Below are positions 3,065 through 10,970 of a stretch of 64,000 nucleotides of DNA, one piece after another. Positions within the stretch are counted from its first letter, which is position 1. Each line of letters begins with the position of its first letter. The stretch spans positions 1-64,000 of the forward strand of contig JBMFRC010000015.1 in NCBI GenBank assembly GCA_049968235.1. The letters run 5' to 3'. Under the pieces are notes generated by a model that saw nothing but the letters and a program-made list of their open reading frames with translations, ran no database searches and was not told the origin of the DNA. The position numbers and the translations under genes are program-made. This stretch comes from Candidatus Hydrogenedens sp. GTDB lineage: Bacteria > Hydrogenedentota > Hydrogenedentia > Hydrogenedentales > Hydrogenedentaceae.

Positions 3065-3451
3065 ATGTCTAAAAAATGTATAATAGTAAAAGATGCTCCA
3101 CCTGCTGTAGGTCCTTATTCACACGCTGTAAAAGCAGGACAATTTTTATTTGTTTCAGGGCAGGGTCCTTTTAATAGGGACGGTTCAGGGGTTGTAAAAG
3201 GAAACTTTTCGGAACAGGTAGAATATACAATGGAGAATTTGAAAATTATACTCAATGGATGTGGATGTAATTTTTCGGATATAGTCAAGATTACAGTATT
3301 TCTAACAGATATGAGTTTATTTTCAGAGTTTAATCAGGTTTATAGTAAATTTTTTGAGAAGGATTACCCTGCTCGCAGTTGTGTGCAGGTATCTCAATTG
3401 CCAGCAGGAATTCCTGTAGAAATTGAAGCCATTGCAATATGTAGAGAATGA
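3065..3451 (+). CDS. ridA: RidA/YjgF family reactive-intermediate deaminase.
   Basis: The RidA-type N-terminal segment APPAVGPYSHAVKAGQFLFVSGQ is present in a 128-aa protein. The gene overlaps the next gene by ATGA. Confidence 0.85.
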   Translation: MSKKCIIVKDAPPAVGPYSHAVKAGQFLFVSGQGPFNRDGSGVVKGNFSEQVEYTMENLKIILNGCGCNFSDIVKITVFLTDMSLFSEFNQVYSKFFEKDYPARSCVQVSQLPAGIPVEIEAIAICRE

Positions 3452-4722
3452 AAGAATTTATGATTAAGAATGGTTATTATTTAATAACTATCATCTATCT
3501 ATTTTTATTAGTGTCTTTTAATACTTTTGCATCTGAATCGATGGAGTTAAACAATCAGGGCGTGGAGGCATATAATCTCAAGGATTATGAGAAAGCGATT
3601 ATTTTGCTATCGCAAGCCATGGCATTAAATCCGGAGAGTGAAGTCATACGAAATAATTTATGTAATGCATTACAAGCACTGGCAGATGAAGAAAGCAAAA
3701 AAAATAATTTTAAGAAAGCAGTAGATTTAGTAGATAAAGCAATTAAAATAAACTCAAATAATTTTTTTGCACATCTTCAAAAGGGGGCTTTTTTATTGAA
3801 TATGGGTCAACTTGTGGATGCCATACGACATTTAGAAATGGCGGTGAAATTAAAACCCGGTTATCTTGATGCTCATGAATTATTAGGGGAGGCTTATTAT
3901 CGGGATAATGATATTTTATCTGCGAGGACGCAATGGGAGTATGTTTTACAGATGGACCCCAATCGAAAGCAATTGAAAGAGCGATATGATAAGGCTTGCC
4001 GTGAAGAAGTTGTGGAAAGTTCTTTCAACAAGACGGTTTCACAATCTCGCCATTTTAATCTGACATATCCTAAAGAAGTGACCTATCAAATTCGTTCATA
4101 TGTTCTTTCGGTATTAGAGCGGGCTTATCTCGAAATAGGAAGAAAATTAGGAGGTGTTTTCCCCTCAGGTCCTATTCAGGTTATTCTTTACGATACTCAA
4201 CAATTTAGATCTGTTGTTCAGATGGGGCAAACTGTAGGGGGTGTTTATGATGGCAAGATACGAATTCCTGTTATGAATGAAGAGGGTGAAGGCTTGTCAG
4301 ATGAAGAAATAAAACGGAGAATATATCACGAATATGTGCATGTGGTCGTTTTTGAGTTACTTAAAGATAAAGTGCCGTGGTGGGTAAATGAAGGGTTAGC
4401 AGAAACTTTCTCAAAAGAATTTTCAAATCGTGAAAAAATGATGTTAGAACAATTTATTAATAATAAGGGACTAATACCTTATAATAATCTTGAAAAAATA
4501 TCAATAAAAGACATGTTTGCGTCGGAGACGAAGATGTCTCAGGCGTATGTACAGTCTCATGCAACCATAAATATGTTATGGAGTAAATATGGACAGGGAC
4601 GATTTCTTAACTTTGTTCAAGCACTTAAACGCAGTGAACATGTGGAAGATGCGTTGCGAAATGTTTATCACCTGGATTATACAAGTTTGTCAAAGGGAGT
4701 TATACAATTTATCCAGAGATAA
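3448..4722 (+). CDS. Secreted TPR-repeat protein with a C-terminal MA-clan (gluzincin, M1-like / Peptidase_MA_2) zinc metallopeptidase motif.
   Basis: A signal peptide and TPR-like repeats are followed by HEYVH(x17)NEGLAE, which matches HExxH...NEGxA of M1-type gluzincins. Confidence 0.55.
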   Translation: MKEFMIKNGYYLITIIYLFLLVSFNTFASESMELNNQGVEAYNLKDYEKAIILLSQAMALNPESEVIRNNLCNALQALADEESKKNNFKKAVDLVDKAIKINSNNFFAHLQKGAFLLNMGQLVDAIRHLEMAVKLKPGYLDAHELLGEAYYRDNDILSARTQWEYVLQMDPNRKQLKERYDKACREEVVESSFNKTVSQSRHFNLTYPKEVTYQIRSYVLSVLERAYLEIGRKLGGVFPSGPIQVILYDTQQFRSVVQMGQTVGGVYDGKIRIPVMNEEGEGLSDEEIKRRIYHEYVHVVVFELLKDKVPWWVNEGLAETFSKEFSNREKMMLEQFINNKGLIPYNNLEKISIKDMFASETKMSQAYVQSHATINMLWSKYGQGRFLNFVQALKRSEHVEDALRNVYHLDYTSLSKGVIQFIQR

Positions 4723-4744
4723 TTTCATAAGTCAAAAAATAGGG

Positions 4745-6769
4745 TTGTATTTTTTCCTCTACTCTTTTATAGGGGTGTCCATTATAGCCTATTCCGATAA
4801 TTGTTCTGTAAAAGGTAGGGTAGTGGATAATAATAATCTTCCTGTAAAAAATGCAGAGGTTTATTGTGAACAAAATCTGATGAGTCCCTTAGTTCAGACT
4901 ATTACAGATAACGAGGGACAATTTAGTTTTTCGGGTCTAATGGAAGGTCCGACCGGTATTTTTGCTACTACGGAAGGTATGGCATGGTCAGGAATTCATA
5001 TCAATTTGCCCGCAGAAGAAAATATAACAGGTCTGGAAATTATTCTTATCCCGGCAAAATCTGTAAAAGGTAAAGTTGTTGTATTAAATGAAAAAGGAAA
5101 AGAAGAAAGTATTTCTGGGGCAGAAATAGACCGTTTTGCAATATTAGGTGTAGAGAAAGTTGCTATACCTTGTTCCAAACTTATTCCGTTTGGATATAAA
5201 AGAGTGATTTCAGATACAGAGGGAGTTTTTTTATTGGATAAAGTGCCAGTGGGCCATACAATATCTTTAAAAGTGGTTCATCCGGAATATGCAGTTACAA
5301 CAGTGGAAAATATTTCTTATGAAGCAGATGCAAAAATAACAATGTCGAAAGGTTGTGTCGTATTGGGTTCTGTATACACTATCCAGAACGATAATAAAGT
5401 AAAAGTTGCTAATTCAGATGTTACTATAAAAAATACCCAAGCCCCATACGAAAGCATATGTGTGAGAACCAATACAGAGGGAGAATTTACAATTCGGCTG
5501 AATCCGGGAGTTTACATGTGTAAAGCAGAAACAAATCAACTGTTAAGTGCGGGATGGGAAATTAAAAAGATTGCAAATTCAATCGGCGAGCATATTCAGG
5601 TGCAGGTATTTCCATCTGTTTATATTTCGGGGCAAATATTAGATGCTATTTCAGGTAAACCAGTTCCAGGGGCTAAAGTCTCTATTGAACAGGGTGGAAA
5701 AAAAGCATTATCTCTTACTACAGGAAGAACGGGGAAATTTCGGGGTAAGGTTGTTCATGGACAGGCTTATATAAAGTTTGAGGCTATTCCAGGCTATACA
5801 ATACCACAACCTTCACAATTAAGAGTTGTGGTAAGTGGAAAAGATGAAATTGTATTGCCCGGTGTATGGGTGAAAAAAGTGGATTCGTTGAAAGTTAAAC
5901 TTGTAGTCCTTCAACAAAAGGTATTAACAACAAATAGAGGAATTGTTTCTGTATTAAACCCTCAGCAATTAGGCTGGTATGCAGGGAATATTGATAATAC
6001 CTTTGAACTAAAACTATCATCAACTCCTGCGGAAGGGAAAATTGTTGGATATGCAGAGATTCCCGAAGAAAATATAGGCAATGTTTTTACGTTGGATAGT
6101 AAAGATATGGGAAAAGTCTGTGAAACAAATCTTTATACATTAGGTACAATAAAAGGTAGAGTCGTGAACAAAGAAAGAACCCCTATTTCTGATGGGATTA
6201 TTTCATGTGTATTGAAAGAAGTGGGAACAAGTCAGGAATATTTATTATGGCAGATACTTCTATCAGCAGATGGAACTTTTTATTGGAATTCTATTATTCC
6301 ATTCAAAACTCTTCTTTTTAAATTGTATGATAATAATGGTTCCTTATTATGGCAATCTTCTGAAATGCAATTTTTAGAAGGAGAGAATAAAGATATAGGT
6401 GATATTATAATAGAAAAGTCTGTGACTAGGAAAAATGTGAGTTCATTACTTCGTTCTAATTATAAAAATTTATGTGGAGGAAGTGAAATCGTAGATATGT
6501 TATTTAAAGGACCCTCTGTTCTTGTTTATGTTGATAGTGCAGAGGTTCTTTTTATGCAAGAAGTATTGGCGAATATAAGAAATATTTTCGGTAGTGGTAT
6601 AAATGTTGGGATGATACTTACCAATGAAATTGATTGTAATGATATAAGTATTCCAGTAATAACAGGGCAACGACCTTCATTAGCCACAACATATTTAATA
6701 GGTGAAGATGGTAATTTGATATGTGAAACTTTTGGTTTACCTTTAATGATACGGATGATAAAAAAGTAA
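4745..6769 (+). CDS. Secreted protein with multiple carboxypeptidase-regulatory-like (CarbopepD_reg) beta-sandwich domains and a C-terminal cysteine-less TlpA/redoxin-like fold.
   Basis: Repeated GRVVD.../GQILDA.../KGRVV modules are present. In the C-terminal segment, VLVYVDSAEVLFMQE sits where TlpA-like proteins have FWATWCPPC. The tracked ORF starts at 4589 and overlaps the upstream gene. The true start is probably TTG 4745 or GTG 4775, just before a hydrophobic stretch, but this is uncertain. Confidence 0.5.
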   Translation: MYFFLYSFIGVSIIAYSDNCSVKGRVVDNNNLPVKNAEVYCEQNLMSPLVQTITDNEGQFSFSGLMEGPTGIFATTEGMAWSGIHINLPAEENITGLEIILIPAKSVKGKVVVLNEKGKEESISGAEIDRFAILGVEKVAIPCSKLIPFGYKRVISDTEGVFLLDKVPVGHTISLKVVHPEYAVTTVENISYEADAKITMSKGCVVLGSVYTIQNDNKVKVANSDVTIKNTQAPYESICVRTNTEGEFTIRLNPGVYMCKAETNQLLSAGWEIKKIANSIGEHIQVQVFPSVYISGQILDAISGKPVPGAKVSIEQGGKKALSLTTGRTGKFRGKVVHGQAYIKFEAIPGYTIPQPSQLRVVVSGKDEIVLPGVWVKKVDSLKVKLVVLQQKVLTTNRGIVSVLNPQQLGWYAGNIDNTFELKLSSTPAEGKIVGYAEIPEENIGNVFTLDSKDMGKVCETNLYTLGTIKGRVVNKERTPISDGIISCVLKEVGTSQEYLLWQILLSADGTFYWNSIIPFKTLLFKLYDNNGSLLWQSSEMQFLEGENKDIGDIIIEKSVTRKNVSSLLRSNYKNLCGGSEIVDMLFKGPSVLVYVDSAEVLFMQEVLANIRNIFGSGINVGMILTNEIDCNDISIPVITGQRPSLATTYLIGEDGNLICETFGLPLMIRMIKK

Positions 6770-6797
6770 ACATTATGTATAAAATGGACTTACCTTT

Positions 6798-8663
6798 ATG
6801 AAAAAATGGATTTGTCTGTTTTTGTTTTTAACAGAAAGTTGTCTACTAAGTAATGTTGTATCTGCTTATGATATAAAAGGGATAGTATATCAGCCCAATG
6901 GGAAACCCGCTTCTGATGTAGATATATGGCTGGTTCATGCTATTCAAGGAACAGCAACAAAGAAGTCGGATAGAGAAGGAAACTTCATTTTTTCAAATTA
7001 TAATTTTGGAGAAGTAACTATTGTCGCGAGAGATAATAAACAACGGATAGGAGGAAGTTCTTTTGTTCTTATGCAGGATGAAAGAGAGATAAACATTTCA
7101 CTTATCGAGGGTGTAAAACAGAAATTGAAGGTTTATAATCACAATTTAAGTCCTATTTCAGGTGCTTATATTCGACGATTTTGGATAGGGGATAAATTTT
7201 GTATCCCTGCAGAAGAGTTGGCTGAGCAAGGGTATGGTTGGTTGCGGAGCAATGATGAAGGAGAAATTATTTTACCCTGTATGCCTATGAATGGGTTTAT
7301 CAAGATAGTTGTATCTCATGTGGATTATGCAGATGCCTATTTGCCATTTATTCCGGTGAATGAAAATAAAACTATGGATATAATTCTACAAAAAGGAACT
7401 TTAATACGGGGAAGAGTAGTTAAAGATGATAAAGGAATAAAAGACGCTTTGGTTATCCCTTTACAGAAAGGGGCTAATAACTTGCGTTTTATACTCCCTG
7501 TTAAAACTGATAAAGAAGGTTTATATCGCTGTCATCTTGATAGAGGAGAATATCGAATTTTTGCAACACATCCAGACTACCCCAATACAATTCCAAAAGA
7601 AATCTCTATTACAAATATTACGGAAGAAGAAATTGTGATTGACTTTACTTTTCAAAATCCGCTGTATTTACAGGGTAAAGTTTTACTATATGATGGAACT
7701 CCCTGCAAATTAGCGAAAATAACAACAATTGAGGAAAAGGGTGTAGAGGATTTTGTATTTACGAATGAAAAAGGGGAATATGTATTAAAATCAAATTCTG
7801 AAAAGTTAAAAGTAAAGATTCTACCTCCACCAGGCTATATTACAGAAGAATTGCCAGAGATTCCTGTTGATTTTAAGGGTGAAAAAAGAATCACAATGCC
7901 TCTGATTCGTGTGAAAAAATTGCCCGAGATTCAAGGGAAAATAATGTTTAATGATGGAAAAGAAGGTGACCGCGTTTTTATTTATAGCACAAATTTAGAG
8001 TTACCGTTTTATGCAATTACGGATAATGATGGAAAGTTCCAAATTTTGTTGGGTATAACTCCTGATGTAAACCCGGTTCATTTTGTGGCAGAGCATGCTT
8101 TGAGATTTGTTAAAAGTGAGTTTGTTGTGGATATGTATAAAGAAAATAAACCTTTAGATATTGTTCTAAACCCTTACGAACCTAATCAAGATAAATTTGT
8201 GAATAAAGAGCGTGAAAATCGTTTATTAACTTTAATAGATAAACCTGCACCGGATATAAAATGCCGTACATGGTTTAATTTTAAGGGTAACCAAAATCCT
8301 TTGCGTGATATGGAAGGGAAGGTCATTTTATTACTATTTTGGGGTGGATTTGACAGAACGCCATTGGGACGGAAACATATTGAAGAGATGCGTGCCTTAT
8401 TTGATTTATATAAAGGTATTTCTGATGTCCAGTTATTATCTATTCATGATGGCACTTTTGATGATGATGAAATACAAAATTATATAAAAGAATATGGGAT
8501 AGAATTTCCTGTAGGTGTAGATACGGATGATGCCAATACCTTTATCCAATATACAATAGACTTTATCCCCCAGTTTATACTTATTGATAAAAAAGGAATT
8601 ATCCGTTATTCCGATGTAGAAGGACGTGCTGTAGAACTTATTAAAGTATTAAGAAGATTATAA
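6798..8663 (+). CDS. Paralogous secreted CarbopepD_reg-domain protein with a C-terminal cysteine-less TlpA-like thioredoxin fold.
   Basis: The protein has a signal peptide (MKKWICLFLFLTESCLLSNVVSAYD). The C-terminus GKVILLLFWGGFDRTPLGRKHIEEM...EFPVGVDTD...FIPQFILIDKKGIIRY aligns with TlpA/ResA, but the CxxC is replaced by DRTP. Confidence 0.55.
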   Translation: MKKWICLFLFLTESCLLSNVVSAYDIKGIVYQPNGKPASDVDIWLVHAIQGTATKKSDREGNFIFSNYNFGEVTIVARDNKQRIGGSSFVLMQDEREINISLIEGVKQKLKVYNHNLSPISGAYIRRFWIGDKFCIPAEELAEQGYGWLRSNDEGEIILPCMPMNGFIKIVVSHVDYADAYLPFIPVNENKTMDIILQKGTLIRGRVVKDDKGIKDALVIPLQKGANNLRFILPVKTDKEGLYRCHLDRGEYRIFATHPDYPNTIPKEISITNITEEEIVIDFTFQNPLYLQGKVLLYDGTPCKLAKITTIEEKGVEDFVFTNEKGEYVLKSNSEKLKVKILPPPGYITEELPEIPVDFKGEKRITMPLIRVKKLPEIQGKIMFNDGKEGDRVFIYSTNLELPFYAITDNDGKFQILLGITPDVNPVHFVAEHALRFVKSEFVVDMYKENKPLDIVLNPYEPNQDKFVNKERENRLLTLIDKPAPDIKCRTWFNFKGNQNPLRDMEGKVILLLFWGGFDRTPLGRKHIEEMRALFDLYKGISDVQLLSIHDGTFDDDEIQNYIKEYGIEFPVGVDTDDANTFIQYTIDFIPQFILIDKKGIIRYSDVEGRAVELIKVLRRL

Positions 8664-8675
8664 TTTAGAGAGATT

Positions 8676-8942
8676 TTATAAGATGGCTTTATTTACGCGT
8701 TTCATTAATCGAGATTTTCTGCGGGCTGCCGAATTTTTATGAATGACCCCTTTGGAACATGCACGGTCTATTATTTGAATGGCTTTTTTAATTGCCATTT
8801 CTCTAAGGTTTTTATCATCGGCATTCAAACTTTGGTATGCCTTTTTAATCATGGTTTTCATGGCAGAACGAATAGAAGCATTTTTCATTCTTCTTTTTTC
8901 GTTTGTGATAATGCGTTTCTTTTGAGATTTAATGTTTGCCAT
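8676..8942 (-). CDS. rpsT: 30S ribosomal protein S20.
   Basis: MANIKSQKKRIITNEKRRMKNASIRSAMKTMIKK is a typical S20 N-terminus in an 88-aa basic protein. Confidence 0.9.
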   Translation of the reverse strand: MANIKSQKKRIITNEKRRMKNASIRSAMKTMIKKAYQSLNADDKNLREMAIKKAIQIIDRACSKGVIHKNSAARRKSRLMKRVNKAIL

Positions 8943-9104: not shown

Positions 9105-10022
9105 ATGAATTATATATATAAATTTTTAATATTAATCATTTGCTATTCAGGTTTTGCTCCTGTTTTAGATATTTTCCCATCCAATAGGAAGAATAATTTT
9201 CTATATTTACATATAAGACAATCCATAATACTTTGGTCATGGCTATTTCTCATCGTATTGTTTATTGGTGTTTTTGCCTTATTATTGTCCTTTCTTGTAG
9301 TTTATTTCCCAGATTTTTATCAGAATTGGGATATTGAATTATGGTTTATTAGTATTACGCGGAAAATATTATTGTGCTGGCTTATTTTTTTTATATTTGG
9401 TTTTGGAAGTGCTCTATTAAGTTCTGTTCATTTATTGCCTTTTATTGCTTCATGGATGAAAAATAAATGGCTTTTGCTATTCTCAAAATTTGTAAATACT
9501 CTATTAATAATCATTGTGTCTTTTATAGGCGTAATAAATATATATGCTTATTTTTTGTTGTATCCGCGTGAGAATGTTCCAAAGGTTTATGTTCTATATG
9601 ACAATCTTGATTACCTGCCACAGTGTATCTTTAATATAGGTTTTTTCCGAATAATTACAACAGGTTGTCATATTTATGGAAGAGGAGGTGTAGCATTGAG
9701 AGTTGTGGATAAAGAGAGTTTTGCGGAATCACTTAAAAATGCAGAAATTATCTTTGTCGCCTCGCATGGATGGGAGGAAGGAATGTTGTCACATGAAGGA
9801 ATCATTAAGCCTGAGGATATTCAAAAAATGGAAATAAATAAACATTTAAAATTTATATATCTATCTGCATGTAAAAGTGGTGCTCAACGGGAGGCATGGG
9901 AAAGAGTTTTAAGCCCTGCAAAGGTATTAACTTATAAAAGGATGACCGCAACATTTGAACATGCATGGTGGTTCTGGAAGAATGCCCCAAGGGTAATTCG
10001 GGGAGAATATAAAGAGGAGTAG
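9105..10022 (+). CDS. Membrane protein (4 predicted TM helices) with a C-terminal caspase/clan-CD-like His-Cys dyad module.
   Basis: The C-terminal ~110 aa contain IIFVASHGWEEG (His221) and KFIYLSACKSG (Cys256). Each catalytic residue follows a hydrophobic block, and the two are 35 aa apart, as in caspases (SHGEEG ... QACRG) and CHAT domains. Confidence 0.35.
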   Translation: MNYIYKFLILIICYSGFAPVLDIFPSNRKNNFLYLHIRQSIILWSWLFLIVLFIGVFALLLSFLVVYFPDFYQNWDIELWFISITRKILLCWLIFFIFGFGSALLSSVHLLPFIASWMKNKWLLLFSKFVNTLLIIIVSFIGVINIYAYFLLYPRENVPKVYVLYDNLDYLPQCIFNIGFFRIITTGCHIYGRGGVALRVVDKESFAESLKNAEIIFVASHGWEEGMLSHEGIIKPEDIQKMEINKHLKFIYLSACKSGAQREAWERVLSPAKVLTYKRMTATFEHAWWFWKNAPRVIRGEYKEE

Positions 10023-10023
10023 A

Positions 10024-10674
10024 TTATGAGTTCGGTAAGTGTAATTTAGAAATTAATTTTAAGTATTGTTCTTCTGATAACACACAGGGTTTACAAATCA
10101 AGTGAGTTAGAAATAATATTTTAGCGGAATGCTCTACTCGTTCAAGATAAGAATATGCTTGATTTAAATCTTTTCCTACCGTAATTACTCCATGTGATTT
10201 TAGAATGAGGGCGTTATGATTGCGTATCCATGGTTTTATGATTTCTGCACCTTCTTTACTTCCCGGTGTCGCATAATCTGTGGTTGGAACTTCACCTAAT
10301 GTCATTATGAGTTCTGGTAAAATGGGTGTACACATGGATATATCTACAATAGATAAGGCTATACTGTATGCAGGGTGAGCATGGACTACTGCATGAACAT
10401 CTTCCCGTTCATCATAAGCGGATAGATGTGTATAAAATTCGGAAGAAACAGACCCTTTCCCCTCTAAAATTTCACATTTATTGTTGGTAAGGATTATTTG
10501 TTTGGGATGTAAATCTCCTTTGGTTACATTACTGGGGGTGCATAGAAATAAATTCTTGGCTATTCGAATACTTATATTTCCATCGGTAGAAGAAATGTAC
10601 CCATTTTGATACATTTTTTTTCCTATTTCGCAAATGAGTTTTTTATGTTTATCGTATTTATTGAGTTTGGACAT
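10024..10674 (-). CDS. Class II aldolase/adducin family protein, of the L-fuculose-phosphate aldolase / MtnB dehydratase / ribulose-5-P 4-epimerase type.
   Basis: STDGNISIR and HAHPAY-type zinc-binding His motifs are present in a 216-aa protein. Confidence 0.7.
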   Translation of the reverse strand: MSKLNKYDKHKKLICEIGKKMYQNGYISSTDGNISIRIAKNLFLCTPSNVTKGDLHPKQIILTNNKCEILEGKGSVSSEFYTHLSAYDEREDVHAVVHAHPAYSIALSIVDISMCTPILPELIMTLGEVPTTDYATPGSKEGAEIIKPWIRNHNALILKSHGVITVGKDLNQAYSYLERVEHSAKILFLTHLICKPCVLSEEQYLKLISKLHLPNS

Positions 10675-10676
10675 GA

Positions 10677-10970
10677 TTAATCTCGATTTTTAGTGGGCAA
10701 TTTATAAATAAAAGTCCAAATAATAAGACAAATTGCAAAAGTTAAAAATAAATGTATTGAAAGGACAATAATTAATTCAACAGTTATTTTTCCCTTAAAT
10801 AAACTTAAATAACATTCCCACAAAGGAACTGAACGCACCTTTTGACCATTTACCGTAATTTCTAATAAAGAAAAAGGCAGGGTAATAATTAGAAGCAAAA
10901 GATAGTTGAACCAAAACCAATGTAAAGACAGAATGTTTAAAATAATATGAAGAAAAGAAGGCTTATTCAC
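10677..10970 (-). CDS. Small hypothetical membrane protein (2 TM).
   Basis: The ORF is tightly packed between ilvE and the aldolase gene. It overlaps ilvE by 8 nt and sits 2 nt from the aldolase. Two hydrophobic helices are predicted. Confidence 0.35.
   Translation of the reverse strand: MNKPSFLHIILNILSLHWFWFNYLLLLIITLPFSLLEITVNGQKVRSVPLWECYLSLFKGKITVELIIVLSIHLFLTFAICLIIWTFIYKLPTKNRD

Follow-up and report, generated by a model that had tools for sequence, protein, structure and literature searches.

Can a cysteine peptidase domain of the caspase or gingipain type be reduced to a short tail on a membrane anchor? This question is raised by a 305-residue protein encoded on contig JBMFRC010000015.1 of Candidatus Hydrogenedens sp. 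(GenBank assembly GCA_049968235.1), of which we analysed positions 1 to 64,000 (hereafter referred to as the window). An initial annotation had read the end of this protein as a minimal clan-CD-like His-Cys dyad behind a four-helix membrane anchor. We found that the product is an inner-membrane protein with an N-terminal bundle of about four helices and a C-terminal alpha/beta domain of ~145 residues carrying a conserved His-Gly and Cys, and that its family is conserved across the uncultured phylum Hydrogenedentota. The domain is likely to be a clan-CD-type Cys/His enzyme (probability of about 0.75), and the full statement, in which it acts as a periplasmic protease, is favoured with somewhat less assurance. 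The tail is probably among the smallest caspase/gingipain-type cysteine protease domains so far.

The gene is complete in the list of open reading frames (ORFs; positions 9105..10022, plus strand, 305 codons and a stop), and homologues match its product over the full length with E-values down to 1e-191. The frame, both motifs and their spacing of 35 residues (H221 to C256) were recovered as annotated. Its first 152 residues (9105..9560, +) hold four hydrophobic blocks by Kyte-Doolittle hydropathy, in agreement with four long helices in the AlphaFold model (residues 3-22, 31-67, 77-104 and 121-152), which bears out the proposed four-helix anchor. The soluble module was initially put at about 110 residues and had to be enlarged: it begins at about residues 159-161 (PKVYVLYD, strand 1) and spans ~145 residues, the omitted segment (residues 161-212) comprising the first two strands and first two helices of the fold. 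This putative catalytic domain (residues 161-305; 9585..10019, +) is composed of b1 (161-165), a1 (173-191), b2 (196-200), a2 (203-212), b3 (215-219), a hairpin (226-234), b4 (250-253), a4 (260-268), b5 (273-276) and a5 (283-299). Strand 3 and the His-Gly motif, IIFVASHGWEEG (residues 215-226, including IIFVASHG), are encoded at 9747..9782 (+), with the putative catalytic H221 in the CAT codon at 9765-9767 (+), while strand 4 and the Cys motif KFIYLSACKSG (residues 249-259) lie at 9849..9881 (+), with the putative nucleophile C256 in the TGT codon at 9870-9872 (+). Asp166-Asn167 stands at the C-terminal end of strand 1 (9600..9605, +), and a cluster of R279, E285, H286 and W289 follows strand 5 (9939..9971, +).

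A word-indexed search retrieved 14 relatives at 45-99% identity, and the domain alignment returned only three proteins in such a search; a 99%-identical fragment has been deposited from a 'Candidatus Hydrogenedens sp.' metagenome-assembled genome (MAG) under the name hypothetical protein. Searched exhaustively with an HMMER profile, 1.84 billion cluster representatives yielded 217 clusters (50% identity) at E ≤ 1e-3, 88 of them at E ≤ 1e-30. Nearly all contain proteins of 290-340 aa that match the query over its full length, and the two-domain architecture is therefore the family norm. Conservation was read from 123 aligned full-length representatives, whose identity to the window protein is 18-30% in most cases (mean column identity, 16%). 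The sole invariant columns are H221 and G222 (123/123), and C256 is kept in 122 sequences, so the dyad singled out in the initial annotation is conserved throughout a deep family. Conservation at or above 90% was also found for L164, Y165, P172, G192, P236, Y252, W265, R279, H286, W289 and P295, with Y252 (121/123), W265, H286 (121/123) and W289 (118/123) each present in at least 118 sequences. R279 is kept in 114 sequences, E285 in 110 and G259 in 109; position 166 is D or E in 109, and position 167 is D, N or E in 100. Some members carry variable insertions between the His and the Cys.

The full-length protein was modelled by AlphaFold2 from 15 sequences (predicted local distance difference test [pLDDT], 85.5; predicted template modelling score, 0.77), and the isolated domain (residues 155-305), modelled by AlphaFold from 39 sequences (pLDDT 91.9), showed the same elements. 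In both models the domain is a beta-alpha-beta sandwich in which H221 follows strand 3 and C256 follows strand 4, at the C-terminal ends of adjacent strands. A His after strand 3 together with a Cys after strand 4 is the arrangement that defines the clan-CD peptidases (caspase-hemoglobinase fold), and structure prediction, one of the checks proposed with the initial annotation, thus came out in its favour. Further features of the clan are present as well, namely a three-layer alpha/beta/alpha core with parallel strands in the order 2-1-3-4-5 in the predicted models, a His-Gly (H221-G222) directly after hydrophobic strand 3, and C256 directly after hydrophobic strand 4 and C-terminal to the His. 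Neither AlphaFold model contains a sixth antiparallel strand or a p10 equivalent, the protein ending six residues past helix a5; the description as a minimal version of the fold stands in this respect, at 145 rather than 110 residues. The structural scores were 12.1 for SAVED-CHAT (8tl0_A; 141 residues, 2.9 A), 11.1 and 11.0 for the gingipains RgpB and Kgp, 10.3 and 10.2 for TPR-CHAT, 9.3-8.9 for three separases, 8.9 for both Csx29 and Raptor, and 8.8 for DdvA.

A member-by-member Pfam scan (n = 123) returned CHAT for 24 members (best E = 7.4e-4), Peptidase_C25 for 18 (best E = 8.2e-4) and Peptidase_C13 for five, all three being clan-CD families. The other recurrent match of the soluble domain was SoxD, weak and far under its cut-off (10/123 members, best E = 0.012). 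The consensus of the domain hidden Markov model matched only Peptidase_C25 (E = 7.5e-5, 22.6 bits; profile positions 219-281 of 374 only) and CHAT (E = 1.4e-4, 21.8 bits), both over the His-to-Cys segment, and no Pfam match to Peptidase_C14 (caspases, metacaspases and orthocaspases) was detected. For the C25 comparison, the RgpB sequence was taken from the PDB and 26 C25 relatives were retrieved; the C25 template alignment comprised 18 sequences. With RgpB or the C25 alignment as template, hhalign placed SHG of the family domain on GH211G and LKFIYLSAC on LPFIFDVAC244, so that the catalytic residues His211 and Cys244 pair with H221 and C256, respectively. The P-value was 0.001 for the 123-sequence domain alignment against the 18-sequence C25 alignment, only 0.02 with RgpB alone or with the 39-sequence alignment, and 0.15-0.2 in the reversed-template control; a 12-column block shuffle is a weak control, as the motif blocks are preserved in it. 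These sub-threshold Pfam matches, the pairing with the RgpB dyad and the conserved His and Cys agree with the clan-CD hallmark first noted, and the sequence evidence for clan CD appears consistent but marginal.

Several results weigh against a periplasmic clan-CD protease. The window protein itself matched CHAT with only 12.4 bits (E = 0.11, cut-off 24; residues 202-262 on profile positions 131-204), and the family consensus falls under the gathering cut-offs of both C25 (22.6 vs 23) and CHAT (21.8 vs 24), so that no curated threshold was reached. Profile searches of PDB sequences with three family alignments recovered no clan-CD chain, and the weak matches that they did return (helical membrane proteins and the 'AHG' motif of phosphoglycerate mutase) were set aside as chance. 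The hhalign probability was 2-21%, charge bias is the sole basis for the topology, and neighbourhood analysis of 46 loci revealed no conserved partner or substrate gene. Finally, Foldseek against the PDB gave no match at E ≤ 1e-3, and among its matches neither flavodoxin-like domains (E = 2e-3, TMq 0.54-0.59) nor TPR-CHAT 8d9h_E (E = 4.4e-3, TMq 0.57) came out ahead. The Foldseek search proposed with the initial annotation therefore found CHAT domains among the matches but failed to set them apart.

This tie introduces the first of the alternatives, in which the domain is flavodoxin- or Rossmann-like and unrelated to clan CD, its Cys and His serve other chemistry and its likeness to caspases is convergent. 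Such chemistry might, for instance, be that of a thiol-dependent hydrolase or an acyltransferase with lipid or cell-wall substrates, or the two residues might belong to a redox or ligand-binding site. Without strand 6, a caspase fold shares its 2-1-3-4-5 topology with flavodoxin, which is why Foldseek cannot split the model from flavodoxin-like folds, and the predicted structure by itself cannot prove clan-CD homology. This alternative seems unlikely to us, and it was rejected as the preferred explanation.

Comparably improbable is a true clan-CD homologue that performs no protease turnover, either as a pseudo-enzyme or a sensor or scaffold like Raptor, or by cutting itself once in a signalling event, the mode proposed for DdvA; both proteins are among the structural matches given above. 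The dyad usually decays in pseudo-enzymes, whereas here the His, Gly and Cys have been kept over 123 sequences at 18-30% identity and are surrounded by a conserved cluster of Y252, W265, R279, E285, H286 and W289. Nor does any sigma or anti-sigma partner adjoin the gene.

If the domain is the clan-CD-type enzyme that we prefer, it would be a stripped-down caspase-hemoglobinase fold without strand 6 and the p10-like part, and a putative cysteine endopeptidase or transpeptidase in which C256 attacks the peptide bond and H221 acts as general base. A likely helper is D/E166, at the end of strand 1, which could orient the His or form part of the S1 pocket, roles for which legumain Asn42 and RgpB Glu152 are positional parallels. 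The R279/E285/H286/W289 cluster, as strongly conserved as the surroundings of the dyad, would sit where caspases have their substrate-binding loop, and a place in the wall of the substrate groove is probable; the cluster may bind substrate or provide an alternative or additional catalytic His, and the His-Cys insertions of some members may shape specificity. Helix 4 would hold the catalytic domain at the periplasmic face of the inner membrane, where exported or membrane proteins might be cleaved or transferred near the bilayer, perhaps in their maturation, sorting or quality control, and the remaining helices would serve as an anchor and possibly as a site of substrate docking or hand-over.

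The first three of these helices resemble Tic20/HOTT (DUF4870), the match covering helices 1-3, and helix 4 (residues 121-152) is an addition leading into the soluble domain. The consensus matched DUF4870 at 17.9 bits (E = 0.003), under the 25-bit cut-off, and TIC20 at E = 0.7 (cut-off 28.6 bits), and individual matches were weak throughout (7/123 members for DUF4870 and 2/123 for TIC20). A Tic20/HOTT-like membrane part is likely, not established. DUF4870 has been renamed HOTT and placed in one superfamily with Tic20; its members, uncharacterised apart from magnetosome MamF-like proteins, have a reentrant-like first helix, a charged loop that is conserved and another two membrane helices (PMC11628618).

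Averaged over the 123 sequences, loop 1 (residues 23-39) contains 3.2 K+R and loop 3 (residues 107-122) 3.45, whereas loop 2 (residues 68-87) is net acidic (1.7 K+R vs 2.3 D+E). By the positive-inside rule, basic loops 1 and 3 would therefore be cytoplasmic, and loop 2 and the C-terminal domain periplasmic. On these charges the C-terminal domain is probably periplasmic with either a membrane-spanning or a reentrant helix 1. DdvA of Myxococcus, with a reduced CHAT domain that is periplasmic and membrane-tethered, offers a precedent (PMC11506125). The opposite orientation would make the protein a membrane-tethered regulatory or defence-type CHAT effector protease in the cytoplasm, and it draws on the structural ranking, in which SAVED-CHAT and TPR-CHAT are top matches, and on the many prokaryotic CHAT proteins that are cytoplasmic defence effectors. 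We consider it doubtful, marginally more so than the two alternatives above: apart from the positive-inside analysis, there is no PADLOC match, the neighbours are housekeeping genes that vary across the phylum, no paralogue occurs elsewhere in the window, and each of the 42 loci of a genome scan comes from a different MAG. A defence system was rejected on these grounds.

A more ambitious version of the periplasmic enzyme is a self-contained sorting or maturation machine, in which the Tic20/HOTT module is covalently coupled to a minimal periplasmic clan-CD transpeptidase that cuts sorting signals and possibly transfers proteins to a lipid or envelope acceptor. The Tic20/HOTT superfamily is linked to protein translocation and membrane-protein assembly, and a sorting or anchoring role is possible because clan CD includes transpeptidases (PorU, GPI8 and legumain-type ligases); the gene context gives it no support, and we hold it to be a long shot. 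Weakest of all, a chance resemblance of two motifs in a spurious or fast-evolving ORF, for which one could cite the shortness of each motif and an AT-rich window (34.6% GC) that favours long ORFs, was rejected as next to impossible in view of the 217 full-length homologous clusters, the invariant H221/G222 and near-invariant C256 at 16% mean column identity, and the confident AlphaFold models.

The distribution of the family was surveyed by a pattern-based scan in which each GTDB species was represented by one genome and 42 loci were detected; a narrower alignment with one peptide pattern was used, and the restriction to one phylum is accordingly a lower bound. About two-thirds of the loci are titled Hydrogenedentota, Hydrogenedentes or Hydrogenedens, and the other titles are 'uncultured Nitrospirales bacterium' (11), 'uncultured bacterium' (3) and 'metagenome' (1). 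The Nitrospirales-titled loci, which include L004-L007, L016, L024, L029, L033, L035 and L038, look like mislabels or placeholders; the title is doubtful because full synteny with the Hydrogenedens window was found for one such contig, shared by L004 and L002. One distant family member is labelled Planctomycetota. We also observed a single 862-aa protein from a JGI metagenome (P0075) in which ~500 aa of TPR repeats are fused after the His/Cys domain, an arrangement reminiscent of the TPR-CHAT proteins Csx29, separase and DdvA; the sequence lies on a 4-kb contig and may be an assembly or gene-calling artefact.

The gene context looks like that of a housekeeping gene. Upstream, rpsT (ribosomal protein S20; 8676..8942, minus strand; Pfam Ribosomal_S20p, E = 5.6e-28) is divergent, as the initial annotation had pointed out, yet this adjacency is clade-specific and kept only in the five closest loci; there is no functional link between the two genes. 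A near-consensus sigma-70-type promoter precedes rpsT (9025->8996, -; TTGAAA, an 18-nt spacer and an extended -10 TG-TATAAT; 11/12 matches), and the 162-bp intergenic region showed nothing similar on the plus strand for the target gene. Downstream lies a convergent class II aldolase/adducin-family gene (10024..10674, -; Pfam Aldolase_II, E = 1.1e-44), the most persistent neighbour in the phylum (downstream in 24/42 loci, mostly directly adjacent). It is co-directional in eight loci (L010-L012, L014, L019, L022, L023 and L027) and convergent in the window and others; given this switch of strand between clades, co-transcription with the target gene is not conserved, and the adjacency has survived an inversion. 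A class IV aminotransferase gene (Pfam) occurs downstream in 23 of the 42 loci, and its adjacency, like that of the aldolase gene, is best read as inherited synteny. Recurrent neighbours in other clades, named by eye and differing between sub-clades, look like housekeeping genes (M20 peptidase and SurE-, DapB- and YicC-like), and distant members have unrelated contexts. NCBIfam and PADLOC scans returned nothing relevant.

Two further features of this region were noted. Between the aldolase and aminotransferase genes, and overlapping the latter by 8 nt, a 97-aa hydrophobic ORF (10677-10970, -) lacks a Pfam match and recurs beside the aminotransferase gene in at least eight related loci, mostly between aminotransferase and aldolase; it is likely a real small membrane protein. 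On the other side, a conserved block at 3448-8663 (+), in which the gene of a TPR/Peptidase_MA_2 protein precedes those of two large CarboxypepD_reg-repeat proteins, recurs in L001, L002, L025 and L033. The second repeat protein ends in an AhpC/TSA thioredoxin-fold domain, an unusual combination, and the listed start of the ORF at 4589 overlaps the preceding gene by 133 nt, its true start probably being further downstream.

Were the domain to prove active, ~145 residues and five strands would become the new minimum for a working protease of the caspase/gingipain type, which would help to define the essential parts of the fold and be useful in protein engineering. An active enzyme would also be a phylum-wide, housekeeping-type membrane protease in a clan whose bacterial members are known mainly for virulence and defence, and the first link, among the sources checked, of a Tic20-like HOTT/DUF4870 domain to an enzymatic partner. 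The improbable sorting machine, if true, would give Hydrogenedentota their own analogue of GPI transamidase, PorU or sortase and be a first functional handle on the HOTT family. Overall, these findings provide a testable, named function for a 'hypothetical protein' conserved in an uncultured phylum.

Among known systems, the domain is most alike to the CHAT and C25 peptidases. Compared with CHAT (PF12770; SAVED-CHAT 8tl0, TPR-CHAT/Csx29 7zoq and 7y83, separase 5u1t), it has 145 aa against 289 profile positions, lacks strand 6 and the accessory helices, scores under the gathering threshold and is fused to a multi-helix membrane domain in a context of neither defence nor cell cycle. DdvA (PDB 8rot; PMC11506125) is a transmembrane anti-sigma factor that carries its TPR-CHAT domain in the periplasm. 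It crosses the membrane with a single helix, has a sigma partner and includes a zinc-bound anti-sigma domain in the cytoplasm as well as a large TPR region, and the target shares none of these features. Gingipains and PorU (MEROPS C25, PF01364) possess catalytic domains of ~350 aa in two sub-domains, plus Ig-like and C-terminal secretion domains, and undergo secretion through the type IX secretion system rather than being membrane-integral, unlike this membrane protein with its 145-aa domain and a C25 score of 22.6 vs 23. With regard to legumain/GPI8 (C13) and the caspases and metacaspases (C14), the structural scores are far under those for CHAT and C25, the C14 Pfam match is missing, and the caspase-type dimer interface is absent because p10 and strand 6 are lacking. 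The family goes unrecognised by the profiles of Pfam (2025 copy), NCBIfam (2026) and PADLOC, and it is undescribed in the literature searched. Because it fails the Pfam tests for CHAT, C25 and C14 and is devoid of strand 6, we file it as a new clan-CD-like family and not as a member of an existing one. Membrane-tethered clan-CD proteins are already known as a category, and it is the joining of a minimal caspase-like domain to one resembling Tic20/HOTT that appears to be new.
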